Positions 127 to 32,675 of a stretch of DNA of 35,388 bases are shown here, piece by piece. Source of the DNA: an uncultured Saprospiraceae bacterium (lineage in GTDB: Bacteria > Bacteroidota > Bacteroidia > Chitinophagales > Saprospiraceae); contig CAZHLB010000001.1 in NCBI GenBank assembly GCA_964533005.1, positions 1 to 35,388 on the forward strand, in the 5' to 3' direction. Within the stretch, counting starts at the first letter, position 1, and every line of letters begins with the position of its first letter. The notes under the pieces were generated by a model. That model was not told where the DNA came from. It made no database searches and saw only the letters and a program-made list of their open reading frames with translations. Both the position numbers and the translations under genes were made by a program.

Positions 127-2265
127 ATGAAATCAATCTACCTCCTTCCGTTGCTGGCTTGCCTTTTTGCAAGCGCCCTTTTTTCCCAATCCAACATCAA
201 TCAAAGCCTCAGCGTGAACAGCACCGGCGCAGCCGCCAATGCCAGTGCCCAACTCGACGTCAGCGCAACCGACAAAGGAATGCTCGTGCCTCGCATGACC
301 TCGGCGCAGCGCACGGGCATTGCCTCGCCCGCCACCGGCTTGCTCGTTTTCGATACGACGACCGGTAGTTTTTGGTTTTACAACGGCACGGCATGGACGA
401 ATCTGGCTGCGCAAAATTCATTGGCAGACAGCGACAACGACACGAAAATCCAGGTGGAAGAAATCCCTGACGAAGACATTATCCGCTTCGACCTCGGCGG
501 CACGGAAAACATGGTGCTAGTCAAAAACCCAAATGGAGACGCCCGGCTGGAATTACCGAATGTTTCCGCCAACACATTTGTCGGTTTTACGGCAGGCTTT
601 TCTAATGCAGGCGGCATTCAAAACACCGCAAATGGTTACGAGGCGCTTTATTCCAATACCCTGGGTTTTTACAACACGGCTTCCGGCGTGGGTGCGCTTT
701 TTTCCAATTCAATTGGCAATAGCAACAACGCCTACGGCAGATACGCCCTCTTCTCCAATACGACCGGCTCAAACAACGTGGCTGACGGCGTGGAGGCGCT
801 TTTTACCAACAACACCGGCAATTCCAACGTGGCAATCGGCGGTTTTGCCTTGCAAAAAAACACCGACCGTTCCAACCTCGTCGCCGTCGGTGATTCGGCG
901 CTGTACAACAATGGGATGGGGGTTACCCTTCCCATTGACGCAACAGGAAACACAGCGCTTGGCTCGAAAGCCTTGTTTGCCAACACGATAGGTTTTAACA
1001 ACACGGCGAGTGGGAACGCAGCTTTGTTTTCCAACACGATAGGCTATGACAATACGGCAATCGGTCACTCTGCTTTGTTCGGCAATACGACGGGCTTTGG
1101 CAATACGGCGACAGGACGCCAGGCGCTGTTTTCCAATACGGATGGTACTTCCAACACGGCAACAGGTTCAAGAGCCTTGCAAAACAACACAACGGGGCAA
1201 TCCAACACGGCGACCGGCGCTTCTGCTTTGCAATCCAACACGACGGGTCTTTACAATACGGCGGTGGGCGTCGGTGCTTTATTTGCCAATACGTCCGGCA
1301 GGTTCAACACCGCCCAGGGAAGGGATGCGCTCTCGTTAAACACGACAGGCGAGTACAACACAGCGTCCGGCTTCGAAGCATTATATGCCAACACGACCGG
1401 CAATTTGAATACAGCAATGGGGGTTAGTGCCCTTCGTTTCAACACAACCGGCGACCAAAACACCGCTACCGGTCGTGAGGCGCTTTATTCCAACTTCAGC
1501 GGCTTCAACAACTCGGCGCATGGAGAAGCTGCGCTTCGTGCCAATACCTCCGGCAGTCATAATACCGCCGCTGGCACGGCAGCGATGAGATTAAACTCGA
1601 CAGGGGTGAGCAACACCGGCGTCGGGTCGGGTGCGCTAAACGACAATACCACTGGTCATTTCAATACCGCCCTTGGTGCGGCTTCCTTTTTCACCTTGAG
1701 CAATCTTAGCAATACGGTTTGTATCGGTTACCTGTCAGGCGGCATCAGCAACGTCAGCAACCGGATGGAAATCGGAAATAACAGTGTCAGTTTTATTGGC
1801 GGGCAGGTGAGCTGGTCAACTTACAGCGACGCCCGCATCAAGACTCAGGTGCAGGAAAACGTGCCCGGCTTGGATTTCATCACCCGGCTGCGCCCGGTGA
1901 CTTATCACCTGGATATTCATAAGCAAAACGAAATGTGCTTCCTGGGAAAGAAAGACTTGGGCGAGTGGGATGGTAAATATGATATCGAGCAAAAGCAATT
2001 CACCGGCTTCATTGCACAGGAAGTGGAGCAGGCGGCGAAGGCGGTGGGCTACGATTTCAGCGGCGTGGAAAAGGCTGCCGACGAGGTGGGAATGTACAGC
2101 GTTCGCTATTCGGATTTTGTCATGCCGCTGGTGAAGGCAGTGCAGGAACAACAAATAGAAATTGAGCAATTGAAAACGGAAAATGAGCGGTTGAAAAAAA
2201 TAGAAGCACAACTCGACAAAATCACTGCCGCACTGCATAGCGAAGGCTTCACCGTAGAAAAATGA
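127..2265 (+). CDS. P1: secreted fibre-like repeat protein with a C-terminal S74-type (tail-fibre/endosialidase) intramolecular chaperone domain
   Basis: 712-aa ORF with signal peptide MKSIYLLPLLACLFASALFSQ. It has the conserved N-domain SVNSTGAAANASAQLDVSATDKGMLVPRMTSAQRTGIASPATGLLVFDTTTGSFWFYNG and the DNDTKIQVEE..DEDIIRFDLGG segment. About nt 571-1717 encode ~17-residue NTAxGxxALxSNTxGxx repeats. The C-terminal module reads GGQVSWSTYSDARIKTQVQENVPGLDFITRLRPVTYHLD..FTGFIAQEVEQAAK..YSVRYSDFVMPLVKAVQEQQ, followed by a coiled coil ending KITAALHSEGFTVEK. Confidence 0.85.
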   Translation: MKSIYLLPLLACLFASALFSQSNINQSLSVNSTGAAANASAQLDVSATDKGMLVPRMTSAQRTGIASPATGLLVFDTTTGSFWFYNGTAWTNLAAQNSLADSDNDTKIQVEEIPDEDIIRFDLGGTENMVLVKNPNGDARLELPNVSANTFVGFTAGFSNAGGIQNTANGYEALYSNTLGFYNTASGVGALFSNSIGNSNNAYGRYALFSNTTGSNNVADGVEALFTNNTGNSNVAIGGFALQKNTDRSNLVAVGDSALYNNGMGVTLPIDATGNTALGSKALFANTIGFNNTASGNAALFSNTIGYDNTAIGHSALFGNTTGFGNTATGRQALFSNTDGTSNTATGSRALQNNTTGQSNTATGASALQSNTTGLYNTAVGVGALFANTSGRFNTAQGRDALSLNTTGEYNTASGFEALYANTTGNLNTAMGVSALRFNTTGDQNTATGREALYSNFSGFNNSAHGEAALRANTSGSHNTAAGTAAMRLNSTGVSNTGVGSGALNDNTTGHFNTALGAASFFTLSNLSNTVCIGYLSGGISNVSNRMEIGNNSVSFIGGQVSWSTYSDARIKTQVQENVPGLDFITRLRPVTYHLDIHKQNEMCFLGKKDLGEWDGKYDIEQKQFTGFIAQEVEQAAKAVGYDFSGVEKAADEVGMYSVRYSDFVMPLVKAVQEQQIEIEQLKTENERLKKIEAQLDKITAALHSEGFTVEK

Positions 2266-2324: not shown

Positions 2325-5300
2325 ATGAAACATGACCAAGAACTATTGCCTTGCTTTGTGCATGGGCTGTTTTTGTCCAAAAGTCTTTTAATTGTTCTTC
2401 TCCTACTGGCGTCAGGCGTCGCTCTTTTTTCCCAACCCAACCCGCATTCCATTCAATTCGAGCGCATCGGCGGCAGGCAAAGCATGTCGCAACGCATGGT
2501 GCAGGCGCTCTTGCGTGTACGGTTTTTGCAATCAAAGCTGCTTCCAACCATCCGCTTTTTCCTGCTCGCCCTGCTCCCGTTTTCTTCCGCATTCGCTCAA
2601 ACTGCGCTCCCTTCCGCCCGCCTGTTCAACGCCCGCGACGGCCTTCCCGATAACAAAGTAGCCCAATTGCTCGAAACCCAAAAAAGCCCCTTCCGTTGGG
2701 CAATCACCACGAACGAGCTCTGTCGTTTTGATGGCTACCGTTTCCAGACGGTTTGGGAAAAACTGCCCGAAATCAGCGGCTTTGCCGAAAACTCGCGGGG
2801 CGAAATCGTCATCTGGCATTACCCCGGCGAGCAGGCGCTGTCTGTTTTCGACCCAAATTCCGGGGCAAAAACGACCCGAAAAACTGCCGAAATCCCCAAC
2901 CTGAAAGGGCGGCTCGTCAACGCCTGGGCGCAGGACACCATGATTTTTCTCTGCCTCGAAACTGCGCCTGACGAGGTGTTCGAGGTCTGGCGATTTTTCC
3001 CCAATTTCAGCACGCAACTGCTTTATCGCCTTCGCACCGACCCGGCAATGCTTCGCCGCCTGCCCAACCCTCGCCCCAAACCGGCAGGGCATTTCGACCA
3101 GAAAACCGGGCGGCTTTGGTTCTCCGCAAACATGTTCGGCAAAAGCAACCAAATCCTGCGCGTAGACCTCAAAACCGCTCGTTGCGACACCCTTTTGCTC
3201 CTTGACCAAACTCTGCCCAGCAGCACCAATGTCCAGATGAGCGCCGCCCCGGAGATGCCTTTGCGCGTTTTTCTCGGTTCCTCCGGCACGGTTTGCACCT
3301 GGAATGAAACGCGGCAGACCTTTGAAAAAGACACACGTTACCCTGGTGCGCAACCCGGACTGGTTTCGATTGGCGAGGACAAAAAAGGCGCGGTCATTTT
3401 CCTGAAAAGCGACCAGGGCATTGTCAATTTTTGGCTGCGCCGCCCCGATGGCTCGTGGCTCGACTTGCAGCCGCTTTTGCCCAAACTGAATTTCAAAAGC
3501 TGCACGGGAAGCGATTTTTCAAGGCAAATCCACCTCGCCACTTCCGAGGGCGTCCTGCGCGTCAATTTTGAAAAGCCGCTTTTTCAACAGTTCATCCCCC
3601 AAAAAACGGCGCAAATGGAATTCCTGAACCCCGCCTTTCGGGGCATCGTCGCAGACCGGGCGGGCAACGTCTGGCTGGCGAGCGAAATGACAGGACTGTT
3701 TCGGATGCGCCCCGATGGCTCGGTGGAACGCACGGTACAGGTCGAAAAAAACGCCGGGGCGGCAGTCGGAACAGACAACGCCGTCAACCTGCAAACCGAC
3801 GCGGCAGGCAACATTTGGTCGGCGCGGAACAGCAGCACGGGCGCTCCCAATCTCTTTCGTTTTGACCCAAAAACCGGGCTTGCCGACCCGTTTTTTCTCG
3901 AAAAACACGCCATCCCGACTTTTTTAGTGTTGAAAAACGGGCAGGTTCTGCTCGCTGCCAGCGACGGAAAAACCGCCAAAATCATCCTGCTTGACCCCGA
4001 AGCCCGCCGTTTTCAAACCCTGGCGAAGGCGGGCGAAAGCGAAAAACTCAAAACGGCGCCCCTATTTTTCCTTGAAAACGAAGCCGGGCAGGTTTGGGTA
4101 GCGGGCAACGAGGGGCTGGCTTTGTTCGACCCCGGCGCCCGGCGGTTCCTCGATTTTCCGGGGGATAGCCCGACGGCGCACGAGTTCCCGATGGCGGTTT
4201 TGTTTTTGGAAAAGGAAAGCCTGTGGTGCGGCACGCTTGGCGGCGGGCTTCGACGGCTCGACGTGAAAACGGGCGCTTGGCAGGTTTTCACCATGCGGAA
4301 CGGTTTGCCCGCCAACAAAATCGCCGGAATTCTGCCCGACGGAAACGGCAACCTTTGGATTTCTACCTGGGACGGGTTGAGTTTTTTTCAGCCGCAAGTC
4401 AGCCTGTTCACCAATTTTTTTACGGCTAATAGCTTGGTGCACAACGAGTTTAACCGTTTTTCTTTTTTCAAAAATTCGGACGGAACCCTGTTCTTCGGTG
4501 GACTGAAAGGCGTCAGTTTTTTCAAACCGGGCGAACTGCTTACCTCCTTTTCGCAGGGCAGCGACTCGCTGCTGATTTCTCAAATCTCGTGGTTCGCTCC
4601 CGACGGCAGGACGAGGCAAGAGCAGATTTTTGGCTTCGACCGGCTCCAAAAAATTACGTTGCCGCCCGGCAACCGATTTTGCAGCATCCGCCTCGCTCTC
4701 GCCAACTACCTGCTGCCCGAAGCCAACCGCTTTTCGTGGAAACTCGAAGGCTACGACGACGACTGGCACCTCAACGGCACGAACAACGAAATCACCTTCC
4801 ACTACCTACCCTCCGGGACGTACCGCCTCATCGTCCGCGCTGCCAACCCGACGGGCGTCTGGGGCAAAAACGAGCGCGTGCTGCAAATCGAGGTGCGCGA
4901 GTTTTGGTATAAAACTGCCTGGTTTTTTGGCTTGCTGGCGGCTGCGACGGGCGGTTTGTTCTACTTTTTTTATCGAAGCCGCGTCCGCCGGAAACTCGAC
5001 CTTGCCGAAAGCCGCCGCATCCATGAGATTGACCACCTGCGCGCCCGGCTCTACACCAACCTGACCCACGAATTTCGCACTCCGCTGACGGTTATTTTGG
5101 GCATGGCGCAGCAAATCCGCAACAGCCCCGCCCAGTTTTTGGAGGAAGGCACTCGCATGATTGAGCGCAACGGCAAAAGCCTCTTGCAACTCATCAACCA
5201 ACTCCTCGACCTCTCCAAACTCGAAAACAATGCCCTCCGCCTGCAATTGGTGCAGCAAGACATCGTGCCGTATCTGCGCTACGTGACCGAAGCATTTCAG

Positions 5301-6686
5301 ACCTACGCCAACAGCAAAAACCTGTCACTGCGCTTTTTCACCACCTTCGAAACGCTGGTCATGGACTTCGACCCGGAGCAAATCAAGCAGGTGTTGACCA
5401 ACCTGATTTCCAATGCGGTGAAATTCACGCCTTCCGGCGGCGAGGTAGCCGTGCGGCTGAACTCCAGTTCAGCCGACTCCGCCGAACTGGAGTTCGGCGG
5501 CACTTTAAACATCGTCGTTTCAGACACTGGCATCGGCATTGCCGAAAAGGACTTGCCGCATATTTTCGACCGTTTTTACCAGGCAGACAGCTCCACCACC
5601 CGTGAGCGGGAAGGCACGGGCATTGGGCTGGCGCACACGCTGGAATTGGTGAAATTGATGGGCGGGAGCGTTTCGGTGGAAAGCGAGTTGGGCAAAGGGA
5701 CGAGCTTCACGGTAAGACTGCCGGTGACAAATCAGGCAGCCCTCCCGACGCCACCCCTGACCCCTAAAGGGGAACCAAATCAGCTACATTCTGCGATAGA
5801 TTTTAATGAAAATACCGCTTCCGACTTTAGCGATTTTGGTTCCCCTTTAGGGGTCAGGGGTGGCGTCGTGGGTGGCATTGAAAAACCCCTTGTCCTCCTC
5901 ATCGAAGACAACGCCGACGTGGTAAATTACCTGCAAACCTGCCTCGCCCCAACCTACCAAACCCAAGTCGCCCGCAACGGTAAAATCGGCGTCGAGCTTG
6001 CCCTCGAGCACATTCCCGACCTCATCATCACCGACGTAATGATGCCCGAAAAAGACGGCTACCAAGTCTGCGACCTGTTGAAAAATGACGAGCGCACCAG
6101 CCATATCCCCATCCTGATTTTGACGGCAAAAGCCGACGCCGCCTCTCGCATGACAGGGCTGCGGCGAGGGGCTGACGCATATTTGGCGAAGCCTTTCGAC
6201 GTGGAAGAAATGCTCGTTCAACTGGAAAGACTGCTGGCAAACCAACAGCGGATTGCGGCTCATTTTTCCAAAATAATGCAAATCGGGGAGGCTGCCCAAC
6301 CGCAAATTTCCGCCGGTGAAATACAGGCAAGCGGGCTGCCAGGGCAGGCTTTGCAGGAAGCCGTGCAGGTGGAAGACGCCTTTTTGCAAAAAGTCAAAAG
6401 CATCGTCGAAGCCAATTATTCCAAAGAAGACTTTGCGCTGCCGCAACTCTGCCGCAGCCTCGGCATGAGCCGCTCGCAGTTGTTCCGAAAAATGAAGGCG
6501 GTGGCAGACACTTCGCCCGCAGACCTCATCCGCTCGCACCGGCTGCACAAAGCCAAATCGCTGCTCGAAAACTCCTCCCTGACCGTCTCCGAAGTCGCTT
6601 GGCAGGTAGGCTTCAAAGACCTCTCGCATTTTTCGAGGGCTTACCAGGAAGCCTTCGGAACGACGCCGAGCGGGACTCGCAAATAA
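2325..6686 (+). CDS. Hybrid two-component sensor histidine kinase / response regulator with AraC-type HTH (HTCS-like)
   Basis: 1453-aa ORF. Periplasmic propeller-type repeats are present (GNVWLASEMTGLF, GQVWVAGNEGLALFD, GNLWISTWDGLSFF). A Y_Y_Y-like segment follows (FSWKLEGYDDDWH..GTYRLIVRAANPTGVWG), then a TM helix (WFFGLLAAATGGLFYFFY). The kinase has an H-box (LTHEFRTPLTVILG) and HATPase G-boxes (DTGIGI, GTGIGLA). A receiver (LLIEDNADV..ITDVMMPEKDG..ILILTAK) and an AraC HTH (..SHFSRAYQEAFGTTPS) complete it. The start is uncertain: ATGs at 2484 and 2496 precede the second hydrophobic segment. Confidence 0.9.
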   Translation: MKHDQELLPCFVHGLFLSKSLLIVLLLLASGVALFSQPNPHSIQFERIGGRQSMSQRMVQALLRVRFLQSKLLPTIRFFLLALLPFSSAFAQTALPSARLFNARDGLPDNKVAQLLETQKSPFRWAITTNELCRFDGYRFQTVWEKLPEISGFAENSRGEIVIWHYPGEQALSVFDPNSGAKTTRKTAEIPNLKGRLVNAWAQDTMIFLCLETAPDEVFEVWRFFPNFSTQLLYRLRTDPAMLRRLPNPRPKPAGHFDQKTGRLWFSANMFGKSNQILRVDLKTARCDTLLLLDQTLPSSTNVQMSAAPEMPLRVFLGSSGTVCTWNETRQTFEKDTRYPGAQPGLVSIGEDKKGAVIFLKSDQGIVNFWLRRPDGSWLDLQPLLPKLNFKSCTGSDFSRQIHLATSEGVLRVNFEKPLFQQFIPQKTAQMEFLNPAFRGIVADRAGNVWLASEMTGLFRMRPDGSVERTVQVEKNAGAAVGTDNAVNLQTDAAGNIWSARNSSTGAPNLFRFDPKTGLADPFFLEKHAIPTFLVLKNGQVLLAASDGKTAKIILLDPEARRFQTLAKAGESEKLKTAPLFFLENEAGQVWVAGNEGLALFDPGARRFLDFPGDSPTAHEFPMAVLFLEKESLWCGTLGGGLRRLDVKTGAWQVFTMRNGLPANKIAGILPDGNGNLWISTWDGLSFFQPQVSLFTNFFTANSLVHNEFNRFSFFKNSDGTLFFGGLKGVSFFKPGELLTSFSQGSDSLLISQISWFAPDGRTRQEQIFGFDRLQKITLPPGNRFCSIRLALANYLLPEANRFSWKLEGYDDDWHLNGTNNEITFHYLPSGTYRLIVRAANPTGVWGKNERVLQIEVREFWYKTAWFFGLLAAATGGLFYFFYRSRVRRKLDLAESRRIHEIDHLRARLYTNLTHEFRTPLTVILGMAQQIRNSPAQFLEEGTRMIERNGKSLLQLINQLLDLSKLENNALRLQLVQQDIVPYLRYVTEAFQTYANSKNLSLRFFTTFETLVMDFDPEQIKQVLTNLISNAVKFTPSGGEVAVRLNSSSADSAELEFGGTLNIVVSDTGIGIAEKDLPHIFDRFYQADSSTTREREGTGIGLAHTLELVKLMGGSVSVESELGKGTSFTVRLPVTNQAALPTPPLTPKGEPNQLHSAIDFNENTASDFSDFGSPLGVRGGVVGGIEKPLVLLIEDNADVVNYLQTCLAPTYQTQVARNGKIGVELALEHIPDLIITDVMMPEKDGYQVCDLLKNDERTSHIPILILTAKADAASRMTGLRRGADAYLAKPFDVEEMLVQLERLLANQQRIAAHFSKIMQIGEAAQPQISAGEIQASGLPGQALQEAVQVEDAFLQKVKSIVEANYSKEDFALPQLCRSLGMSRSQLFRKMKAVADTSPADLIRSHRLHKAKSLLENSSLTVSEVAWQVGFKDLSHFSRAYQEAFGTTPSGTRK
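5744..5872. repeat. 129-nt palindromic (MITE/REP-like) element in frame within the HTCS linker
   Basis: The left arm (5744-5781, cccgacgccacccctgacccctaaaggggaaccaaatc) is the reverse complement of the right arm (5832-5872) apart from two 1-nt indels. The spacer is 50 nt. The total of 129 nt equals 43 codons with no stop, and it lies between the HATPase and receiver domains. Confidence 0.8.
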
Positions 6687-6911
6687 TTCTCTTTCAACAA
6701 GTTGGGCAATCCCCCGCTTCGTGCCATGCAACGAATCGGCAAATCTTTTTTGCCGCTTTGGGACGCAATGCACAATCGTTGGGACGATGCGGCAAGGCGT
6801 CTGGCGGGTGCTGACTGCACCTTTGTTTCGTAAAGCATTTATCTCTGTAACCCTCAAAAACCAAACCCCAAAAGCCAAATGAAAACAATCACATCTCTTC
6901 AATCTATCAAC

Positions 6912-7544
6912 ATGAAAAGCAGATTTCAAATCCTCCTCATCTCCCTGTTCGCAATGCTTGCTTTCGCAAGCTGCCAGCAGCCAACCCAGTCTTCCGCACC
7001 CGAAGCCGCCGACGCCGCCGTGCCGGAAGCCACCCAACCTGCCGCCTCGGAAACTGCCGCCATGCCCGACGTCCCGAACATCCTCAAAGTCTCGGCAAAT
7101 GAAAAATTGGTCTTCACGGCGAAGGCAAAAGGCGTCCAGATTTATGAATGCAAAAAGACGGACAAAGGCAATTTAGAGTGGGTTTTCAAAGCTCCCGAAG
7201 CCACTTTGATGGACGAGTCGGGCGCTAAAATCGGAACCCACTACAAAAACACCGACCCGGCGGCGACGGGCCCCGCTTGGGAATTGCCGGACGGCAGCAA
7301 AGTGGTCGGCAGCAAATTGCAGGAATTGCCCTCCCCGGCAGCCGATGCCATTCCCTGGCTCCTGCTCGAAGTCAAATGGAACAAAGGAGCGGGCGCTTTC
7401 GCCAATGTCACCAAAATTCAGCGGGTGGAAACGGCGGGCGGCAAAGCCCCGGCGGGCGGCTGCGATGAAAAATCCATAGGCACGGAAATGCGGGTGGATT
7501 ACACGGCGACTTATTATTTCTATGCCATTAATGCGAGTAAGTAG
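6912..7544 (+). CDS. DUF3455-like secreted/lipoprotein
   Basis: The ORF opens at 6879, but the ATG at 6912 gives the signal peptide MKSRFQILLISLFAMLAFASC. The body (GVQIYECK..WVFKAPEATL.DESG..IGTHY..GPAWELPDGSKVVG..IPWLLLEV..RVETAGGKAP..C..VDYTATYYFY) matches my recollection of the DUF3455 family pattern. Confidence 0.7.
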   Translation: MKSRFQILLISLFAMLAFASCQQPTQSSAPEAADAAVPEATQPAASETAAMPDVPNILKVSANEKLVFTAKAKGVQIYECKKTDKGNLEWVFKAPEATLMDESGAKIGTHYKNTDPAATGPAWELPDGSKVVGSKLQELPSPAADAIPWLLLEVKWNKGAGAFANVTKIQRVETAGGKAPAGGCDEKSIGTEMRVDYTATYYFYAINASK

Positions 7545-7738: not shown

Positions 7739-8641
7739 ATGAAAAACAATCTCCTGCGGCTGCTTGCAGTCGCCCTGTTGCTCCTTTGTTTGGGCGCAAC
7801 CGCCAACATCATGGCTCAAAACACGGGCAACGACCTTGCCTCCGTCGAGCCAATTACCGACCCGCACGACCTGAATTTCGGTGAGCCGGTGCTTTCCACG
7901 GAAACATCGGAGCCGCCTGCGGCAACCTTTTACGCTGTTGTCGAGCGCATGAAAGTGCTGCCCGGCATGTGGGACAAGTACCTCGAAGCGGAGAAGGTCT
8001 GGAAGAAAATCCATCAGCAGAGCAAAGCCAAAGGCGAAATCATGGACTGGTTCCTGTTTCAATGCCTCTACCCCGGCGGCACGGATGCGCCCTACGAGTT
8101 CATCACCGTCACCTACTACAAGAGTGGCAAGGAACTCGGCGCCCCTTTTGTTTGGGCCGAGAAGACCAAAGGGCTGACCCCGGCGGAAGTAGAAATCGCC
8201 GACGGCGCAGAGAAGACCCGCAACCTGATTGACCGCCACCTCTATTCCTTCTTCAATGGCTGCGACCAGGCGACCTGCAAGCCCGGCAAATACCTCCAGC
8301 TTTTTGCAAACAAAGCGAAGCCCGGCAAGACCTCCGGCTACGAAAAATTCCTCGAAGACGGCACAGCCATGCGCCTGGAAGCCATCAAATCCGGCAAAAT
8401 ACAAGGCTGGTCAATCTGGAAACGAGTCTATCCCGGCTCGCCGGATTTGGAAACACACACGGCGGTTTATGCTTACGAAAGCCTCGACGCTTTGCTCAAA
8501 AACTCAGCGCCGGTGGACTTTTCCGCTGAAATGAAGAAGGTGAAGCCGGGGCAGACCTGGGAGGATTTTATGAAGCAGATGAATGAGTTGCGGGATTTCG
8601 CAGGCTCTGAAATGTGGGAGCAGGTGGATAGTACGCAGTGA
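7739..8641 (+). CDS. Secreted hypothetical protein with an internal two-fold repeat
   Basis: 300-aa ORF with signal peptide MKNNLLRLLAVALLLLCLGATANIMAQ. Two halves share the pattern PG...Y......G.I..W......YPG. I recognise no family. Confidence 0.7.
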   Translation: MKNNLLRLLAVALLLLCLGATANIMAQNTGNDLASVEPITDPHDLNFGEPVLSTETSEPPAATFYAVVERMKVLPGMWDKYLEAEKVWKKIHQQSKAKGEIMDWFLFQCLYPGGTDAPYEFITVTYYKSGKELGAPFVWAEKTKGLTPAEVEIADGAEKTRNLIDRHLYSFFNGCDQATCKPGKYLQLFANKAKPGKTSGYEKFLEDGTAMRLEAIKSGKIQGWSIWKRVYPGSPDLETHTAVYAYESLDALLKNSAPVDFSAEMKKVKPGQTWEDFMKQMNELRDFAGSEMWEQVDSTQ

Positions 8642-8867: not shown

Positions 8868-10769
8868 ATGAAGAAGCTCCTTCCCTTCCTCGCCTGCCTC
8901 CTGGCGGGCATCTCCCTTTTCTCCCAAACCACCTCCAACATCCAGCAGCCCCTCAGCGTGAACAGCACTGGCACCGCCGCCGACCCCAGCGCCCAGCTTG
9001 ACGTCAGCGCCAACAACAAGGGCATGCTCGTGCCCCGCATGACGACGATGCAGCGCACCGCCATCACCGCCGCCAACGCCCTGCTGGTGTTCGATTCGGA
9101 TACGAAATCTTTTTGGTTTTTCGACAGCGCAGCGGCTGCCTGGCGGGAAATCAGGGCAGGCAACATCGCCACTTTGCAGGATGCCGACGGCAACACCAAA
9201 GTGCAGGTAGAGAAAAACCCCAACGAGGACATCATCCGCTTCGACCTCGGCGGCACGGAGAACATGGTGCTGCGCAAAAACGCAGGCGGCTCGCCCCGGC
9301 TGGAGCTGACCAATGCGCAGTTCAACACCTTTGTCGGCGAGTTTGCGGGCAACGCCAACACCAGCGGCTTCTCCAACACCGCCAATGGAAGGGTTGCGCT
9401 TTATTTCAACACGACCGGCGGAGGCAACACCGCCAATGGATTGGCTGCGCTTATATTAAACACCAGCGGCAGCTTTAACAGTGCCAATGGGTTTGAGTCG
9501 CTTCGTTCCAACACAACGGGTGGCTTCAATACCGCCAGCGGAACGTATTCGCTTTATTCCAACACCACTGGCTCGAACAACACGGCACTGGGCCACTTTG
9601 CCGACGTCTTGTCAGGCAACCTCACCAACGCCACCGCCATCGGCTACAATGCCAAAGTGGGGGCGAGCAACAGCCTCGTGCTGGGTGGCACGGGCACTGA
9701 GGCGGTGAACGTCGGCATCGGCAAAACCAGCCCTGAAGTCCGGCTCCATGCCCATTCGGCAGACCCATCGGGCACGAACGGCATCGTCGGGTATTTCCAA
9801 AGGGCAGGAGCGGGCGACGTGGGCATCTCCTTTTCGCAGGAAGGCGTGATAGCTTACGGCATCATGCACCCCGTTGGCGGAGGCTTGGAATTTTACAGGG
9901 ACAGGTGGCCCGGCGGGGCAGGCACCTTGCAAATGAAAATCGCAGATTCGGGCAACGTCGGCATCGGCACTCCCACCCCTACCAGCAAATTGGACGTGGA
10001 AGGTGGCCTGTCCATCGGCGCAACATACTCCGGCACGTCAGCTGCACCGACCAATGGAGCCATCATCGAGGGCAATGTCGGCATCGGCACCCCCACCCCT
10101 TCTGCGACCCTCGACGTAAAGTCGGCAACACCTTCCATTGTAGTGGGGACTGCCGGTGGAGGTGACGGCGCCCTTTATTTTGGGAACACCGCCCATGGCG
10201 TAAAAAGAAACTATATCAATGGCAATGACGTGGCATTGTTTACGACAGCCGGGGACATTATATTAGAGTCAATAGGCACCGGCATTGCTTTTATGGTTTT
10301 GGGAAACAACGGCAACGTCGGCATCGGTCGCTTCTCTGCCACCAACAAGCTGGAAGTGGAAGGCGCCGCCTCCAAATCCTCCGCCGGCGACTGGCTCGCC
10401 AACTCCGACGCCCGCCTGAAAAAGAACATCCAACCCCTCAACTCGCAACTGATGCTGCAAAGCCTGCTCGCCCTGCGTGGCGTCACTTACGAGTGGAACG
10501 ACGACAAGACCGGCTCAAAACGTCCCGAAGGCATCCAGTACGGTTTTACGGCGCAGAATATCCGGGAGGTGTTCCCCACCCTGGTGGAGGAGGATAAATT
10601 GGGCTATTTGCAAACGGCTTATGGGACGTATGATGCGATGACGGTGGAGGCGATACGGGCGCTGAATGAGGAAAATCAGGCGTTGAAAGCGCAGGTGGAA
10701 ACCTTGACTTCTCAACTCGACAAAATCACCGCCGCCCTCGCCGGGGCTGGCATTGCGGTGGAAAAATAG
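8868..10769 (+). CDS. P2: secreted fibre-like protein, class B S74-type C-terminal module
   Basis: The ORF opens at a TTG at 8838, but the ATG at 8868 gives signal peptide MKKLLPFLACLLAGISLFSQ. The N-domain is the P8 type (..AITAANALLVFDSDTKSFWFFDSAAAAWREIRAGNIATL). Only about five 17-residue repeats are present (~9321-9591), followed by GNVGIGTPTP..KLDV-type segments. The C-terminal module reads DWLANSDARLKKNIQPLNSQ..LRGVTYEWND..GIQYGFTAQNIREVFPTLV, with tail QLDKITAALAGAGIAVEK. Confidence 0.85.
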   Translation: MKKLLPFLACLLAGISLFSQTTSNIQQPLSVNSTGTAADPSAQLDVSANNKGMLVPRMTTMQRTAITAANALLVFDSDTKSFWFFDSAAAAWREIRAGNIATLQDADGNTKVQVEKNPNEDIIRFDLGGTENMVLRKNAGGSPRLELTNAQFNTFVGEFAGNANTSGFSNTANGRVALYFNTTGGGNTANGLAALILNTSGSFNSANGFESLRSNTTGGFNTASGTYSLYSNTTGSNNTALGHFADVLSGNLTNATAIGYNAKVGASNSLVLGGTGTEAVNVGIGKTSPEVRLHAHSADPSGTNGIVGYFQRAGAGDVGISFSQEGVIAYGIMHPVGGGLEFYRDRWPGGAGTLQMKIADSGNVGIGTPTPTSKLDVEGGLSIGATYSGTSAAPTNGAIIEGNVGIGTPTPSATLDVKSATPSIVVGTAGGGDGALYFGNTAHGVKRNYINGNDVALFTTAGDIILESIGTGIAFMVLGNNGNVGIGRFSATNKLEVEGAASKSSAGDWLANSDARLKKNIQPLNSQLMLQSLLALRGVTYEWNDDKTGSKRPEGIQYGFTAQNIREVFPTLVEEDKLGYLQTAYGTYDAMTVEAIRALNEENQALKAQVETLTSQLDKITAALAGAGIAVEK

Positions 10770-10778
10770 ACCGGCAAC

Positions 10779-10809
10779 AGGTCGGCGACGTTGCGAACGC
10801 CGGCGACCT
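10779..10809 (+). terminator. Imperfect GC-rich hairpin between P2 and P3, homologous to the hairpin at 23862-23898
   Basis: aggtcggcgacgtt gcg aacgccggcgacct has several stem mismatches and no T-run. The sequence and its flanks are homologous to the P5-P6 junction. Confidence 0.4.
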
Positions 10810-10867
10810 TCAAACGTTCTCATTCGTAGCCGCTTTTGAGAAACCCTTTCACATAAATCGCAACCTG

Positions 10868-13690: not shown

Positions 13691-13748
13691 GCAAGAACAC
13701 AAGGTCGGCGAAGTTCGCTACCTCGCCGGCATACCGATTTTGCCGCCT

Positions 13749-15804: not shown

Positions 15805-15805
15805 A

Positions 15806-18972: not shown

Positions 18973-19358
18973 ATGACAAAATGGTTTAGGCGCAAAAATA
19001 GACTTTGTTTCGAGAATAAAAACATTTTGTGTGTTTTCTCTGCCGCTCCTCTTCTCAACGGGTAGTCCTTCCTTATCTTCTTCTGAATCTCCTCGTTGAT
19101 GTCGTCGCTTTCATCCTTGCTTTCCCAATAGCCGAAGTCGAGGCGCAGTGCATTTTTAAGAATGCCGTCGGGATAAACGGCTTTGCCGAGCGTGCCTTTC
19201 ACTGCTAATTCGGTGATAAGATAGAGGTTGCGTTTCTGCGCATATTCATTGATAAGATTGACAAAAGCGGTGCGAATGCTGGTCTCGTTGCGGCTGCCGC
19301 CATATTGGATGGTTTTGTCGAGCGCCGTGTAATATTGCTGGATTAGGAGTTTAGACAT
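18969..19358 (-). pseudogene. N-terminal fragment of a Type ISP-like restriction/modification enzyme
   Basis: The first ~100 aa read MSKLLIQQYYTALDKTIQYGGSRNETSIRTAFVNLINEYA..YPDGILKNALRLDFGYWESKDESDDINEEIQKKIRKDYP. This matches the N-terminal pattern of large Type ISP/N6-methylase enzymes as I recall it. The sequence then diverges and stops after 129 aa, overlapping the dcm start by 4 nt (ATGA). Confidence 0.55.
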
Positions 19359-19397
19359 GAGCGATTGTGTTTGAATGGTGGACGCAGGTTTGGATTT

Positions 19398-19430
19398 ACG
19401 TTTACTAAACTTTCAAAGTTTAGCAAACGT
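19398..19430. repeat. REP-like hairpin (ACGTTTACnAAACTT..AAGTTTnGnAAACGT), related to 28546-28576
   Basis: acgtttactaaactt tca aagtttagcaaacgt has one stem mismatch. Nearly the same arms occur at 28546-28576. Confidence 0.6.
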
Positions 19431-19503
19431 GGGCTGCAAGGTAAAAAGCGGGGTTAAAAAGAATATCTTGATTTCACGAGTGGGACTACTTCGCACCAAA
19501 CCC

Positions 19504-19511
19504 TACCTTTG
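19504..19511 (+). promoter_or_regulatory. Candidate -7 promoter box (TACCTTTG) for P4
   Basis: The box fits TAnnTTTG. The whole ~75-nt segment from this box to the ATG is duplicated upstream of P5, where the box reads TAACTTTG at 21841. Confidence 0.45.
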
Positions 19512-19574
19512 GCTACTCGATTCCTGGCTTTCCGGCTATTTGGCTTTTTTCCTTTTCCAATTAAATCTTCAACC

Positions 19575-21731
19575 ATGATGAAAACAGTCACTTGCTATGT
19601 CTTGTGTTTCCTCGCCGCATTTCAACTCGCCGCCCAGGTCGAGTTCAACCCGGCAGGCACTTCCACCAACGCTTCCGCCATTTTTGAACTGACCGCCACC
19701 GACAAGGGTATGCTCGTGCCTCGCATGACCACTGCTCAACGAACCGCCATTGCCTCGCCTGCCACCGGCTTGCTCGTTTTCGACACCACGACAGGCAGTT
19801 TTTGGTTCTACAACGGGGCATCCTGGATTAATTTATCCGTTCCGAAGGTGCTCGCCGATGCCGACGGCAACACCAAAATACAAGTGGAAGAAAATCCCAA
19901 TGAAGACATCATCCGCTTCGACGTCAGCGGAACAGAGGAAATGGTGCTTCGCAAAAATGGCAACGGAGAATCCCGGCTGGAATTTCCGGGGACGAATGTC
20001 TTTGTCGGGGAAGGCGCCGGGCAAGCGAATTCGAACCTCGGCAACAACAACGTTGGCGTTGGAACGCAGGCACTTTTTTCCAACAACACCGGCGACCAGA
20101 ACACTGCCGCTGGCTTCCATGCGCTTCAATCCAACAACAGCGGCAGCAACAACACCGCCACCGGTTTTCAGGCGCTTCAGGAGAACACCTCCGGTGGCAG
20201 CAACAACGCCAATGGCGTGAATGCGCTTCGGGACAACACCACCGGCGGCAGCAACACCGCCACTGGCGTGAATGCGCTGCTTTCCAACACCACCGGCAGC
20301 GACAACACTGCCACTGGCGTGGCTGCGCTTTCCTCCAACACCAACGGCACCCAAAACACGGCTCATGGAGCGCAGGCGCTTTTTTCCAATACCACCGGCG
20401 ACTACAATACCGCCACCGGAAAGAGTGCGCTTTATTCCAACACCAGCGGCAACTACAACACTGCCAATGGCACAAATGCGCTTTTTTCCAACACCACAGG
20501 CAATTACAACACCTCAACCGGGTATGAATCGCTCGCTTTCAGCACCGGCTCTTTCAATTTGGCGAGCGGCTATCAAGCCATGTACGAAAACACTACCGGC
20601 TTTTCCAACACGGCGAGCGGCTACACTTCGCTCTATTCCAACACCACCGGCTTTCAAAACACGGCGGACGGGCACCAGGCTTTGCATGGCAATACCACCG
20701 GCGCTTTTAACATGGCGGCAGGCTACCGGGCTGCCTACGTCAACACCACCGGCTCTGCCAACGTGGCAATTGGGATTCGGGCTTTGTACCTGAATACCGA
20801 CCGCTCTTTCCTGGTAGCGGTGGGCGATTCGGCGCTTTACAATAATGGCGTGGGCGCTTCCCTGAGCACTCATTCGACCGAAAATACGGCGCTTGGCTCC
20901 AAGGCTTTGTTTGCCAACACCACTGGCGACTCCAACACCGGAGCAGGTTTTCAAGCCATGTTTGCCAACACGACCGGCGGAAACAACACGGCAGTCGGCT
21001 TTGAAGCTTTTGACCTGAACCTGACCGGCAACAATAGCACGACAATGGGTTACAGAGCTGGCGACGAGGGAAGCGACAATACCAATTGCACGTCCATTGG
21101 CGCTGATTCGGACGTGGGCACTGCGGGCACGAGCTACACCAATGCCACCGCCCTCGGCTACAATGCCAACACCGCCGCCGACAATTACGTCCGCATCGGA
21201 AACACCAGCGTTTCCAGCATCGGCGGGCAGGTCGGGTGGAGCACTTATTCCGACGGGCGGTTCAAGCGAAATGTGCAGGAAAACGTGGCGGGTTTGGATT
21301 TCATCATCCGCCTGCGTCCGGTGACTTATCAGTGGGACATTCATGCGCTGAACGATTTCATCCCAACCGCCAACGACGACTCGACGGAGTGGCGAGGCAA
21401 GTATGACATTGAAACAATGCGCTTCACTGGCTTCGTTGCGCAAGAAGTGGAACAGGCGGCGACGGAGGCGGGCTTTGATTTTAGCGGGGTGGACAAGCCG
21501 AAAAATGAGCACACGCCGTATGCTTTGCGCTACGCCGAGTTCGTCGTGCCACTGGTGAAGGCGGTGCAGGAGCAGCAAGCGGAAATTGGAAATTGGAAAT
21601 TGGAAATTCAGGAGCAGCAAGCCAGGATTGAAAAGGTAGAAAGACTTGAATCTGAAAATGCGGCATTGAAATCCCACCTCGAAAAAATCACCGCCGCCCT
21701 GCAAGGCGCAGGCATTGCTGTCGAAAAGTAA
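19575..21731 (+). CDS. P4: secreted fibre-like repeat protein with an S74-type C-terminal module
   Basis: The ORF opens at a TTG at 19509, but ATGs at 19575 and 19578 give signal peptide M(M)KTVTCYVLCFLAAFQLAAQ, as in P5. The N-domain is FELTATDKGMLVPRMTTAQRTAIASPATGLLVFDTTTGSFWFYNG. The 17-residue repeats span about 19995-21135. The C-terminal module reads GGQVGWSTYSDGRFKRNVQENVAGLDFIIRLRPVTYQWD..FTGFVAQEVEQAA..YALRYAEFVVPLVKAVQEQQ, with tail ..VERLESENAALKSHLEKITAALQGAGIAVEK. Confidence 0.85.
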   Translation: MMKTVTCYVLCFLAAFQLAAQVEFNPAGTSTNASAIFELTATDKGMLVPRMTTAQRTAIASPATGLLVFDTTTGSFWFYNGASWINLSVPKVLADADGNTKIQVEENPNEDIIRFDVSGTEEMVLRKNGNGESRLEFPGTNVFVGEGAGQANSNLGNNNVGVGTQALFSNNTGDQNTAAGFHALQSNNSGSNNTATGFQALQENTSGGSNNANGVNALRDNTTGGSNTATGVNALLSNTTGSDNTATGVAALSSNTNGTQNTAHGAQALFSNTTGDYNTATGKSALYSNTSGNYNTANGTNALFSNTTGNYNTSTGYESLAFSTGSFNLASGYQAMYENTTGFSNTASGYTSLYSNTTGFQNTADGHQALHGNTTGAFNMAAGYRAAYVNTTGSANVAIGIRALYLNTDRSFLVAVGDSALYNNGVGASLSTHSTENTALGSKALFANTTGDSNTGAGFQAMFANTTGGNNTAVGFEAFDLNLTGNNSTTMGYRAGDEGSDNTNCTSIGADSDVGTAGTSYTNATALGYNANTAADNYVRIGNTSVSSIGGQVGWSTYSDGRFKRNVQENVAGLDFIIRLRPVTYQWDIHALNDFIPTANDDSTEWRGKYDIETMRFTGFVAQEVEQAATEAGFDFSGVDKPKNEHTPYALRYAEFVVPLVKAVQEQQAEIGNWKLEIQEQQARIEKVERLESENAALKSHLEKITAALQGAGIAVEK

Positions 21732-21741: not shown

Positions 21742-21774
21742 AGCGATACGATTGCTTCAAGCAATCGTATCGCT
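21742..21774 (+). terminator. Perfect hairpin terminator after P4
   Basis: agcgatacgattgc ttcaa gcaatcgtatcgct starts 11 nt after the stop. The stem base AGCGATACGAT is shared with the hairpin after P6, with one compensatory base-pair change. No T-run follows. Confidence 0.6.
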
Positions 21775-23858: not shown

Positions 23859-23861
23859 GCA

Positions 23862-23898
23862 TGAAGGTCGGCGGCGTTGCGAACGCCGCCGACCTTCA
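23862..23898 (+). terminator. Perfect GC-rich hairpin between P5 and P6
   Basis: tgaaggtcggcggcgtt gcg aacgccgccgaccttca forms a 17-bp stem starting 4 nt after the P5 stop. It is homologous to the imperfect hairpin at 10779-10809. No T-run follows, so it could act as an attenuator or RNA-stability element rather than a full terminator. Confidence 0.55.
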
Positions 23899-23953
23899 AT
23901 CGTTCCCATTCGAAGCCGCTTTTAGGCACTCCTTTCAATTAAATCGTAGCCGA

Positions 23954-26990: not shown

Positions 26991-27025
26991 AAGCGATACG
27001 ATGGCTCGAAGCCATCGTATCGCTT
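26991..27025 (+). terminator. Rho-independent-type terminator after P6
   Basis: aagcgatacgatggc tcgaa gccatcgtatcgctt is followed by tttat. It is related to the P4 hairpin. Confidence 0.7.
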
Positions 27026-27096: not shown

Positions 27097-28020
27097 ATGA
27101 AAAAAAAGTGCACACTTCCGTTCCTCGCGTTCATCGCATCAACCAGCCTTGTCGTCCTTCACGGACAAACCACGCATGAAATCATCACGATTGGAAACAC
27201 CTTTAGCCCCAGCACCCTGACCATCCAGGCAGGCGATTCGGTGCGCTGGGTGAACAGCGGCAGGTGGGCGCTGTACCCGAACACGTCGCTCTCCAACAAC
27301 GCCGCCTTTGGCTTCTCGGCAGGCGACCAGTACCTCTCCGACAACTCGACCTACTTGGGCGTCGAGGCATATCCTTCCGCCGCCGGTTTTACCAATTGCA
27401 TGGGCTTGGGCAGGAGCGCACGCCCCACCGGTTCCAACCGGGTGCATATCGGCAACGCCAGCATTACTGCCATTTGCGGGCAGGTGGGCTTCACCACTTG
27501 TTCCGATGGGCGTTTCAAAAAGAACGTGAGCGAAAAAGTAGGCGGCTTGGACTTCATTCTGCGCCTGCGCCCCGTCACCTACAACATGGACGTTCAAGGC
27601 ATCGCCGCAGCCCTCAAGGAAGACTGGGGCAGGAACGAACAAGGCAACATCGTCCAAAAATCGCCGGACGAGGCGACTCGCCGCAGCCGGGAAGAAAAAT
27701 CGCAAATCCGCTACACAGGCTTCATCGCCCAGGAAGTGGAAGCGGCGGCGAAGCAGGTGGGTTTTGACTTTAGCGGCGTGGATGCGCCGCAAAATGAAAC
27801 CGGCTTGTATGGTCTTCGCTATTCCGAGTTTGTCGTGCCGTTGGTGAAAGGGATGCAAGAGCAGCAAGTGGAGATTGGAAATTTGAAATTGGAAATTGAG
27901 GCGCAGCAAGTCAGGATTGAAAAAGTGGAAAGACTTGAATCAGAAAATGCAGCCTTAAAATCCCAACTCGACAAAATCACCGCCGCCCTCACAGGCGCAG
28001 GCATTGCGGTAGAAAAATAA
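27097..28020 (+). CDS. P7: short chimeric protein, a cupredoxin-like N-terminal fragment fused to an S74-type module
   Basis: 307-aa ORF with signal peptide MKKKCTLPFLAFIASTSLVVLHGQ. The segment TTHEIITIGNTFSPSTLTIQAGDSVRWVNSG resembles the first strands of plastocyanin/cupredoxin-like domains but stops before the His ligands, at about nt 27261. It lacks the family N-domain and has almost no repeats. The rest reads IGNASITAICGQVGFTTCSDGRFKKNVSEKVGGLDFILRLRPVTYNMD..GFDFSGVDAPQNETGLYGLRYSEFVVPLVKGMQEQQ, and the tail is nearly identical to P4. Confidence 0.7.
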   Translation: MKKKCTLPFLAFIASTSLVVLHGQTTHEIITIGNTFSPSTLTIQAGDSVRWVNSGRWALYPNTSLSNNAAFGFSAGDQYLSDNSTYLGVEAYPSAAGFTNCMGLGRSARPTGSNRVHIGNASITAICGQVGFTTCSDGRFKKNVSEKVGGLDFILRLRPVTYNMDVQGIAAALKEDWGRNEQGNIVQKSPDEATRRSREEKSQIRYTGFIAQEVEAAAKQVGFDFSGVDAPQNETGLYGLRYSEFVVPLVKGMQEQQVEIGNLKLEIEAQQVRIEKVERLESENAALKSQLDKITAALTGAGIAVEK

Positions 28021-28796: not shown

Positions 28797-30029
28797 ATGA
28801 AAAACATCCAGGTTTTACTCCCCGCGCTGGCGCTTGCCTTCCTGCTCGCTTCCTGCGCCAAGGAACAACTCAGCACCCCCGAAGCTGCGCTTGCCGCAGA
28901 AACGGGCGACCTGCAAATTGACCCCGCCGAAGGCTTGCTCGACGAGGAGGCGCTGTACAAAGTCCTCGCCGGAGAGGAGGAACTGTCGTCCAGGACAAGC
29001 CCCCAATCCGCCGTTTACACCCTCGGCAATGAGGTGGCGGGCAACGAGGTCATCGCTTTTTATCGCAACGACGACGGCTCGCTTTACGAGGCGGGCAGAT
29101 ACGGCACGGGCGGCACAGGTTCGGGCGGCGGACTTGGCAACCAGGCTGCACTGGCGATGAGCAGCGGCGGCAAATTTTTGTACGCCGTCAATCCCGGCAG
29201 CAATGAAATCAGCCATTTTCTCATTCGGAACGACGGCAGCTTGGAATTGAAAAACAGAATCGCATCGGGTGGCGTGCTGCCCGTGAGCATCGCCGTTCAC
29301 AACGGGCTGGTTTACGTGCTCAACGCAGGCGGCACGGGCAACATCACCGGGTTCGCCTTCAACCAGCAGGGGCAAATTTTCCAGTTGTCCAATTCCACCC
29401 GCGCCTTGAGCAGCCCAAGCGCAGGCGCTGCGCAAATCGCCTTCAGCCCGGACGGCAAGGTGCTGGTCGTCACCGAAAAAGCGACGAACACGATTTCGAG
29501 CTACCCCGTGCTGTCCAGCGGGCGCACTGGCGCAATCCGCACGTTTCCCTCGGCAAACGCCACGCCTTTTGGTTTCGCTTTTGGCAGAAACGGCAACTTC
29601 CACGTCTCCGAAGCCGCAGGCGGCGCTGCCGGGGCAAGCACGATTTCAACCTACCACGTGAACATCATCGGGCAGGTTTCGCTGGTGGACGGTCCTTTTG
29701 CGCTCAACCAGTCCGCCGCCTGCTGGGTCGCCCTTGCCAAAAACAACTCGTTGTTGTTCTCGACCAACACCGGCTCGAATACCATTTCGACGCTCGACGT
29801 CTCCTTCTCCGGCGTCTTGAGCGCACCCGCCAGCGGCGGCACGGCAACCGCCATGTCGCAGCCGCTCGATGCGGCGGTGGACAAGGATTCCGACCACCTG
29901 TACGTGCTGGCGACGGGCAACAACGCTATTATCAGCTACACTTTCGACAGCAATGGGAAATTGACTCAAATTGACGTGGACGACGAAAACCTGCCCGACC
30001 GGATGAGCGGGCTGGTGGTGAGGGGATAA
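28797..30029 (+). CDS. Lactonase-type 7-bladed beta-propeller family lipoprotein
   Basis: 410-aa ORF with lipoprotein signal MKNIQVLLPALALAFLLASC. Repeated blade-like segments are present (GGKFLYAVNPGSNEISHF, NGLVYVLNAGGTGNITGF, DGKVLVVTEKATNTISSY, NSLLFSTNTGSNTISTL, SDHLYVLATGNNAIISY). Confidence 0.7.
   Translation: MKNIQVLLPALALAFLLASCAKEQLSTPEAALAAETGDLQIDPAEGLLDEEALYKVLAGEEELSSRTSPQSAVYTLGNEVAGNEVIAFYRNDDGSLYEAGRYGTGGTGSGGGLGNQAALAMSSGGKFLYAVNPGSNEISHFLIRNDGSLELKNRIASGGVLPVSIAVHNGLVYVLNAGGTGNITGFAFNQQGQIFQLSNSTRALSSPSAGAAQIAFSPDGKVLVVTEKATNTISSYPVLSSGRTGAIRTFPSANATPFGFAFGRNGNFHVSEAAGGAAGASTISTYHVNIIGQVSLVDGPFALNQSAACWVALAKNNSLLFSTNTGSNTISTLDVSFSGVLSAPASGGTATAMSQPLDAAVDKDSDHLYVLATGNNAIISYTFDSNGKLTQIDVDDENLPDRMSGLVVRG

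Positions 30030-32675: not shown

Follow-up and report, generated by a model that had tools for sequence, protein, structure and literature searches.

A probable tandem family of exported fibre proteins in a Saprospiraceae bacterium that resembles phage tail fibres turned to cellular use

Fibres that end in an intramolecular chaperone (ICA) of the Peptidase_S74 type have been described in phages, among them the K1F endosialidase, T5 pb1, the GA-1 neck appendage, and SPO1 gp2.52. A non-viral use of the same module is found in the eukaryotic myelin regulatory factor (MyRF), a transcription factor bound to membranes, in which cleavage frees the N-terminal part for nuclear entry and which is neither a fibre nor secreted. 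Among cellular fibres, the closest described system is the mosaic adhesive trimer (MAT) family of Bdellovibrio bacteriovorus (Caulton et al., 2024; PMC10769870), which comprises 21 chromosomal paralogues in which a signal peptide and a conserved N-domain, ~130 aa in size and rich in beta structure, precede a long trimeric fibre; 13 of these carry a C-terminal S74 domain with an SDxxxK motif. One member, Bd3182, cleaves itself at Ser782, the S782A substitution abolishes this cleavage, and MAT proteins were located on the predator surface and in a vesicle (PMC10769870). Supplementary Table S3 of the same study lists MATs of the Fibrobacteres-Chlorobi-Bacteroidetes (FCB) group from a Saprospiraceae bacterium, Dokdonia (S74-like), Kordia, and Salinivirga. 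Here, an array of eight fibre genes and one gene remnant is described from a stretch of 35,388 nucleotides (hereafter the window) of an uncultured Saprospiraceae bacterium (GenBank assembly GCA_964533005.1, contig CAZHLB010000001.1, positions 1 to 35,388 of the forward strand). The array is probably a tandem chromosomal family of exported fibre proteins in which phage tail fibres have been turned to cellular use.

An earlier note on this DNA, made from the sequence alone, had listed eight + strand open reading frames (ORFs) as paralogues and, further, a ninth 3' remnant. All eight ORFs were recovered with the same boundaries and are labelled A to H in coordinate order. The genes, the predicted catalytic serine of each S74 domain, and the scores against the Pfam profile PF13884 (Peptidase_S74) are as follows.

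127-2265, + strand: fibre gene A, 712 aa; S74 Ser567, codon 1825-1827; PF13884 34.1 bits
8868-10769, + strand: fibre gene B, 633 aa; Ser513, codon 10404-10406; PF13884 60.8 bits
10868-13690, + strand: fibre gene C, 940 aa; Ser790, codon 13235-13237; PF13884 38.5 bits
15654-15761, + strand: ninth fibre gene, 3' remnant only (final 35 codons and stop); tblastn to paralogue F, E 2.5e-6
19575-21731, + strand: fibre gene D, 718 aa, full architecture; Ser559, codon 21249-21251; PF13884 37.6 bits
21915-23858, + strand: fibre gene E, 647 aa, full architecture; Ser499, codon 23409-23411; PF13884 33.9 bits
23954-26977, + strand: fibre gene F, 1007 aa, longest repeat array; Ser865, codon 26546-26548; PF13884 35.7 bits
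27097-28020, + strand: gene G, 307 aa, truncated/chimeric; Ser136, codon 27502-27504; PF13884 38.4 bits
30255-32675, + strand: fibre gene H, 806 aa, long repeat array; Ser676, codon 32280-32282; PF13884 61.1 bits

Protein A consists of a signal peptide, an N-domain of the PTL_trimer type, a DNDTKIQVEE segment, ~24 repeats of 17 aa, the S74 domain, a coiled coil, and a tail (...KITAALHSEGFTVEK). Protein B follows the N-terminal plan of A and continues into a short repeat array, a non-repeat beta region of ~250 aa, and a divergent S74 subtype, while in C the N-domain is followed by a long array of 17-aa repeats of the NSFFG type and then by S74. The architecture that the earlier note had ascribed to all eight ORFs holds for seven of them and fails for G, which has no N-domain, no DGDTK segment, and few of the repeats. 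In G, a signal peptide leads into a cupredoxin-like scrap at the N-terminus and ~80 aa of degenerate repeat, after which come an intact S74 domain and a coiled coil and tail of the D type. Its N-terminal region (27097-27500) resembles the start of a cupredoxin or plastocyanin (TTHEIITIGNTFSPSTLTIQAGDSVRWVNSG), although the Pfam Cupredoxin_1 match (E 0.2) is not significant, and on the basis of this arrangement G looks like the product of a deletion or fusion that joined a cupredoxin-like start to the end of a fibre gene with the S74 motif kept. The remnant at 15654-15761 is real, encoding ...LRAENATLKTQLENQAIRLDKITAALQGAGIVVEK followed by a stop, and matches the tails of the paralogues in tblastn searches with E-values down to 2.5e-6; the same searches detected no further fibre-gene remnant in the window.

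The assignment of the C-terminal modules to Peptidase_S74, which the note had made from motifs and had proposed to verify by a hidden Markov model (HMM) search, is upheld for every copy. All eight ORFs exceed the 22-bit gathering score of PF13884, with 33.9-61.1 bits, and the scores form two groups, one at 33.9-38.5 bits (A, C, D, E, F, and G) and one at ~61 bits (B and H). The S-D-[AG]-R-[IFL]-K catalytic motif is intact in 8/8 proteins, with its Ser 121-172 residues before the C-terminus. Six copies (A, C, D, E, F, and G) also contain the additional hallmarks named in the note (LRPVTY, TGF.AQEVE, and PLVKA.QE); B and H represent a divergent S74 subtype, with S74 domains 25-33% identical to those of the other copies. 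An AlphaFold2 monomer model of the last 250 aa of E (pLDDT 88.4) shows a short strand in every 17 residues, followed by an S74 domain of alpha/beta fold and a helix of 49 residues. Its best matches in the PDB are solved ICA/S74 domains, led by that of MyRF (7dc3; E 1e-3, TMt 0.61) and including those of GA-1 (3gud) and K1F (3gw6); these fold matches range from E 1e-3 to 0.3, with a TMt of 0.61 at best. Sequence searches of the PDB and of NCBIfam returned no match.

Between the N-terminal region and S74 lies a repeat shaft. The 17-residue periodicity read from the translations was confirmed by residue autocorrelation, which peaks at lags 17 and 34 in seven proteins, and by Tandem Repeats Finder, which reports periods of 51 and 102 nt (in C, a period of 102 nt with 12.9 copies). 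The shaft consensus is NTAxGxxALxSNTTGxx, present in 5 to ~40 repeats per protein, and the paralogues differ mainly in the length and sequence of this shaft. In B and H, the non-repeat beta region is an extra element between the repeats and S74, and the capping-loop motif VGIGxxxPxxxL is seen three times in B and a single time in H, with none in A or C-G.

At the other end of the proteins, each leader begins with 1-3 Lys, followed by a hydrophobic stretch of 13-17 residues and then by Gln at residue 19-24 (FS|Q, AA|Q, or HG|Q). Reading of the sequences thus agrees with the note in giving every copy (8/8) its own Sec-type leader. The leaders fit the Sec/signal-peptidase-I type with Gln at the predicted +1 position, in agreement with the Q-rule described for signal peptides of Bacteroidetes (PMC5837995, PMC10653852), and a lipoprotein is unlikely because the Cys residues of the leaders precede hydrophobic residues.

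The leader is followed by an all-beta domain of ~65 aa and then by a segment of ~55 aa (DxDxDTKIQVEE..DEDIIRFD). The note had not recognized this N-domain as any named family; judged from the precomputed annotation of homologues, it very probably belongs to Pfam PF26696 (PTL_trimer). Nearly all close homologues carry that accession, and so do fragments of 80-120 aa consisting of the domain alone; when a set of 5.8 billion proteins was searched with the N-domain, such short fragments were the only matches. Homologues with a precomputed PF26696 match are 56-81% identical to the N-domain of the window proteins, whereas P0020, a homologue with a different N-terminus, has no such match. A search against a Pfam copy older than PF26696 gave only noise, even at E<=10. 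A model of residues 26-153 of A is all-beta (pLDDT 88) and has no significant match in the PDB, the best being a weak local similarity to CBA120 tailspikes (E 0.03). Against predicted viral structures, the same region yields 26 matches at E<=1e-3. Some are to proteins of uncultured Caudovirales with 40-52% identity over ~60 residues; others are to virion proteins of cyanophages and to a viral protein named 'Peptidase S74 domain-containing protein'. With a profile of the N-region, 65,832 cluster representatives were retrieved at E<=1e-3, of which 42,931 remained at E<=1e-10; both counts are somewhat inflated by the leader and first repeats which the profile spans. The domain also occurs away from the N-terminus, with three internal copies in one homologue (P0052) and up to 20 copies of the PTL_trimer type in single giant proteins of 2,000-4,700 aa (P0241-P0253 and others). 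Because of these many internal copies in giant relatives, PTL_trimer is best regarded as a common, repeatable fibre module and not as a dedicated N-terminal anchor.

A search with protein D gave at least 7,924 matches below 1e-10 among 8,000 candidates scored. These homologues are named 'tail fiber domain-containing protein' by NCBI and often 'trimeric autotransporter adhesin' by JGI, and their hosts belong to the Saprospiraceae, Lewinellaceae, Chitinophagaceae, Ferruginibacter, Flavobacteriales, Bacteroidales, and Cytophagales; a few S74-repeat relatives are from Verrucomicrobia, Acidobacteriota, and WOR-3. The best species-representative genomes, which are metagenome-assembled genomes (MAGs) of Lewinellaceae and Saprospiraceae, reach <=60% identity. 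When related loci were compared, as the note had proposed, tandem arrays of 3-6 copies proved to be common in Saprospiraceae and Lewinellaceae (L001, L002, L006, L008, L038, and L039), with cellular genes as neighbours, including those for peptidase M23, an AraC regulator, SnoaL proteins, glycosidases, and cargo of the type IX secretion system (T9SS). The proteins of Bacteroidota that combine PF26696 with PF13884 have the same architecture at 40-60% identity, form tandem arrays in non-phage contexts, and do not differ in kind from those described here. No paper dedicated to S74 fibre arrays of Bacteroidota or to PF26696/PTL_trimer was found in the literature. With thousands of homologues annotated and the MAT family published, the note implied more novelty than is warranted: the array adds a further case to a very large family that is annotated already, and its design is one described for the MAT fibres of Bdellovibrio.

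The likeness to the S74 subgroup of the MAT family lies in a multi-paralogue chromosomal family with signal peptides, long fibrous shafts, C-terminal S74 domains, and mosaic modules. The mosaic character is evident from the eight copies and the remnant, which are 25-90% identical depending on the module and have differing partners from one module to the next. The MAT N-domain of ~130 aa can be set beside the beta-rich region of ~128 aa present in 7/8 window proteins, both being without a PDB homologue, a likeness that is one of description. The MAT capping loop, VG[IG][GN]xxxPxxxL, is found in B and H, while the six other window copies lack such loops and carry the other S74 subtype. The systems differ in that the host of the array is a member of the Bacteroidota without a known predatory lifestyle, its genes are in tandem and those of MAT are scattered, its shaft is a regular 17-residue repeat, and all of its copies end in S74 with no alternative tip domain.

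The likeness to phage fibres reaches well beyond S74. The note had pictured a phage chaperone added to a cellular repeat fibre, a picture that has to be revised, as each part of the fibre (N-domain, repeats, and S74) has a counterpart in phages. The repeats together with S74 match phrog_23837, phrog_4636, and phrog_6002 (annotated as virion structural proteins and tail spikes) with up to 295 bits, and the N-domain gives short matches to phrog_6002 and phrog_20787. By tblastn, residues ~165-690 are 30-44% identical to phage fibres and spikes, including those of Methylophilales phage Venkman, Pelagibacter HTVC111P, Roseobacter CRP-1, P-SSM2, and SPO1 (gp2.52). Among the viral contigs of IMG/VR, which were searched with protein D, a lambda-like locus (L068) encodes a tape measure, minor tail proteins, a tail assembly protein, a J-like central fibre, and then a fibre of 840 aa. 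This last protein has no signal peptide and starts with an N-terminus of ~90 aa, which is followed by a PTL-like domain (E 8e-7 with an HMM built in this study), the same NTAxG repeats, and S74 (34.3 bits). Phage fibres with the chaperone, the L068 fibre included, thus have in common with the window proteins the S74 domain and its motif and a shaft of 17-residue repeats with 30-44% identity over ~500 residues, to which L068 and viral proteins in BFVD add the PTL-like domain. They differ in having a virion-attachment N-terminus, no signal peptide, and genes within tail modules, whereas in the window proteins a Sec leader stands directly before the PTL domain and the genes lie among cellular genes. 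Judged from these comparisons, the cellular proteins resemble phage side tail fibres whose virion-attachment N-terminus has given way to a Sec leader.

The note's view of the array as a cellular repertoire of fibres, and not a prophage, is supported by the Pfam matches, the catalytic motif, the ICA fold matches, the non-phage genes of the window, and the non-phage arrays of relatives. From the leaders, the motif, and the described analogues we infer export, trimerisation, cleavage, a surface location, and a role in adhesion for these proteins, in the following order. The Sec system would export each protein and signal peptidase I would remove its leader. Three chains would then join through the S74/coiled-coil module, which would nucleate folding of the shaft from the C-terminus, by analogy to the K1F endosialidase, T5 pb1, and Bd3182. 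The Ser-Lys dyad of the S-D-x-R-x-K motif would subsequently cut the chain and free the C-terminal 121-172 aa; what is left would be a stable trimeric fibre with its distal tip formed by the new C-terminus. By comparison with MAT and phage fibres, adhesion at the surface or outside the cell is the most likely role of the mature fibres.

Three observations weigh against this view of the array. First, the PTL_trimer domain, given its internal recurrence in giant relatives, is not obviously an anchor. Second, no recognizable device for outer-membrane export or anchoring (a T9SS C-terminal domain, a YadA anchor, or a lipobox with an export signal) was found in 8/8 proteins; the note had likewise seen no T9SS C-terminal domain, no clear lipobox, and no beta-barrel, and the Pfam scan of all eight agrees. 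Third, the stretch just before the predicted cleavage site, which would form the distal tip, is conserved and not variable in six copies, which is unexpected for a repertoire diversified with respect to receptors.

Variation among the copies was examined module by module in MAFFT-based identity tables. In the S74 core, A and F are 90% identical, as are B and H, and other pairs are 25-66% identical. In the leader and N-domain, the closest pairs are D and E (87%) and B and H (82%), with 40-73% for the others, and in the coiled coil and tail they are D and G (85%) and C and H (85%), with 53-77% for the others. As the closest partner differs by module, past exchange of modules between copies is indicated. 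The C-terminal tail, QL[DE]KITAALxGAGIxVEK (KITAALQGAGIAVEK), is kept in all eight copies and in the remnant and corresponds to the last 17 codons of each fibre gene (for example, 2212-2265, 10716-10769, and 21678-21731; 15708-15761 in the remnant). It is kept even between S74 subtypes that are ~25-30% identical, such that the tail is more conserved between subtypes than the S74 core. Its codons differ at synonymous sites between copies, indicating selection on the protein. Recent gene conversion was considered as the source of the conserved ends and was rejected on account of the module identities of 25-90% and the synonymous differences among tail codons.

Of the alternatives to a surface-anchored fibre, the one that survives best is that the proteins are exported but not anchored, being periplasmic, released, or carried in vesicles; they might, for instance, be soluble adhesins, fibres of the matrix, or factors used in antagonism. 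This is unlikely, yet it has several observations in its favour. The failure of Pfam and NCBIfam to reveal an anchor or an outer-membrane secretion signal in the eight proteins leaves room for a periplasmic or released location; an entry named 'tail fiber domain-containing protein' appears in outer-membrane-vesicle proteome tables of Tannerella forsythia, and in Bdellovibrio a vesicle receives MAT proteins. Against it stand two facts that bear on the window proteins only indirectly, namely the demonstration of MAT fibres on the predator surface and the presence in family relatives of a T9SS sorting domain, which normally leads to surface attachment or secretion. This domain (Por_Secre_tail) follows S74 and the coiled coil in ~17 of the 120 closest homologues; in P0054, P0094, P0109, and P0113 it scores 23.7-26.9 bits and is also annotated as PF18962 in precomputed form, and P0042 and P0045 are likewise carriers. 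Such placement after S74 puts the export signal on the very fragment that self-cleavage would remove.

Three endings therefore exist within the family: the coiled coil only, the KITAAL..GAGI.VEK tail as in the window, or a T9SS sorting domain. The tail is common to about a quarter of the closest homologues (22/120 by regular expression, and more with near variants), and the KITAALQGAGIAVEK tail occupies the position that the T9SS sorting domain takes in relatives. The tail may matter for function, either before cleavage or after it. A more specific proposal, that it is a new, short export or sorting signal situated on the part later cut off by S74, is doubtful. If true, it would imply the logic of a disposable export tag, and the tail would offer a handle on how Sec-exported trimeric fibres cross the outer membrane in Bacteroidota, a question that arises for the MAT fibres of Bdellovibrio as well.

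A second alternative, that the genes encode tail fibres of a prophage, a tailocin, or an extracellular contractile injection system whose other genes lie outside the window, is very unlikely in spite of the phage homologues of every module and of reports that S74-ended fibres occur on contractile injection systems too. Fibres of such particles assemble in the cytoplasm, and the phage homologue of L068 has no leader, whereas Sec-type leaders are present in 8/8 of the array proteins. Moreover, no structural, lysis, or integrase gene was found in 35 kb, where the copies are dispersed among cellular genes, and relatives have similar arrays in non-phage contexts.

It is less probable still that the array is decaying, consisting of relics of old phage insertions that are no longer expressed or functional. 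One copy is indeed reduced to a remnant of 35 codons, G is truncated and chimeric, and some relatives (for example, L008) contain frame-shifted copies. However, seven ORFs of 633-1007 codons are intact despite their repetitive DNA, the catalytic motif is kept in 8/8, and copies that are 25-90% identical by module show synonymous variation in a conserved tail. In addition, of the eight occurrences of TAnnTTTG, the -7 promoter motif of Bacteroidota, on the + strand of the window, four lie upstream of A, D, E, and H, at distances of 33-74 nt. Finally, trimeric autotransporter adhesins (type Vc secretion) are the least probable identity, since the JGI names of several homologues, the weak resemblance of the shaft to YadA-like heads in the fold search (CbpF, EibD, SadA, BoaA, and YadA at E 7e-3 to 2), and the one hit to the YadA-head models that the note had proposed to search (YadA_head in H, 18.2 bits, under the 25-bit cut-off) are set against 0/8 proteins with a YadA anchor (PF03895) or a C-terminal beta-barrel and a C-terminus that is instead S74 plus coiled coil.

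The DNA that flanks the fibre genes bears promoter-like motifs and hairpins.

37 nt upstream of A: promoter-like motif TAAATTTG
71 nt upstream of D: promoter-like motif TACCTTTG
33 nt upstream of H: promoter-like motif TAGATTTG
23862-23898: hairpin after E, 17-bp stem, long and perfect
26991-27025: hairpin after F, long and perfect

The upstream region of A is homologous to that of H, and that of D to that of E, each having been duplicated together with the 5' ends of the genes. Related hairpins lie 3' of B, C, and D. The spacer between B and C (10770-10867) and that between E and F (23859-23953) are homologous, sharing a long GC-rich hairpin (GAAGGTCGGCGnCGTTGCGAACGCCGnCGACCTTCA) and the sequence after it, and a second type of hairpin (AGCGATACGATnGCT...AGCnATCGTATCGCT) is common to the 3' sides of D (~21742-21774) and F (26991-27025). 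Hairpins of both types look like terminators or elements of the repetitive extragenic palindromic (REP) kind that were duplicated with the genes.

As the note had stated, the surroundings are not those of a phage: capsid, portal, terminase, tape-measure, baseplate, and integrase genes were not found in the 35-kb window, and a tRNA search of the window found none. The gene content is that of a Bacteroidota chromosome, as follows.

2325-6686: hybrid two-component sensor (Y_Y_Y, HisKA, HATPase, receiver, and AraC)
6879-7544: DUF3455 protein
7739-8641: secreted protein
28797-30029: lactonase-like beta-propeller
33379-35382, - strand: T9SS cargo protein with Por_Secre_tail, 56 bits

A counterpart of the hybrid sensor, 45% identical and similarly located upstream of a fibre gene, was observed in a Saprospiraceae MAG (L013 3753-6350). 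The possibility that this sensor is a dedicated regulator of the fibre genes was considered and rejected, as similar sensors lie within 10 kb of fibre genes in ~6/61 related loci, which is approximately what chance would give in Bacteroidota. In a Lewinellaceae MAG (L009 5719-9734), two copies of the protein encoded at 7739-8641, 28-29% identical to it, are encoded immediately upstream of a fibre gene. The association of the sensor and of the 7739-8641 protein with fibre genes may be plain synteny. In the public collections searched, the sole exact match to a window protein is that of the 7739-8641 product to a 1,198-bp contig of a Hainich groundwater metagenome (H51 well, 0.2 um fraction; ERZ1292639), whereas exact look-ups of A and of the lactonase-like protein gave no match; a groundwater origin is thereby suggested, from a member of the Bacteroidota absent from the GTDB species genomes.

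The array is interrupted by a low-GC island (13700-19560; GC 0.41-0.50 versus ~0.55 elsewhere), whose genes, all on the minus strand, are of the defence and restriction-modification kind.

13749-15266, - strand: AAA_35 ATPase
~15360-15650, - strand: TaqI-like specificity-domain fragment
15806-16351, - strand: Type ISP C-terminal fragment
16455-16850, - strand: Vsr
16843-17154 and 17160-17813, - strand: split DUF4928
17779-18972, - strand: C5 cytosine methylase
18969-19358, - strand: Type ISP-like N-terminal fragment

Since the fibre-gene remnant (15654-15761) lies between two of the island fragments, the island seems to have replaced most of the ninth fibre gene, and to have done so in more than one step.

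If the array is, as appears probable, a family of phage tail fibres turned to cellular use, it would exemplify the takeover by cells of entire phage side tail fibres, beyond the chaperone alone, and the expansion of such fibres into tandem mosaic arrays. In environmental, Saprospiraceae-like bacteria, it is plausible that these fibres are adhesins for particles, algae, or prey. The differing endings that follow the chaperone within the family (nothing, a short conserved tail, or a T9SS domain) would then provide a concrete way to ask how the fibres leave the cell.

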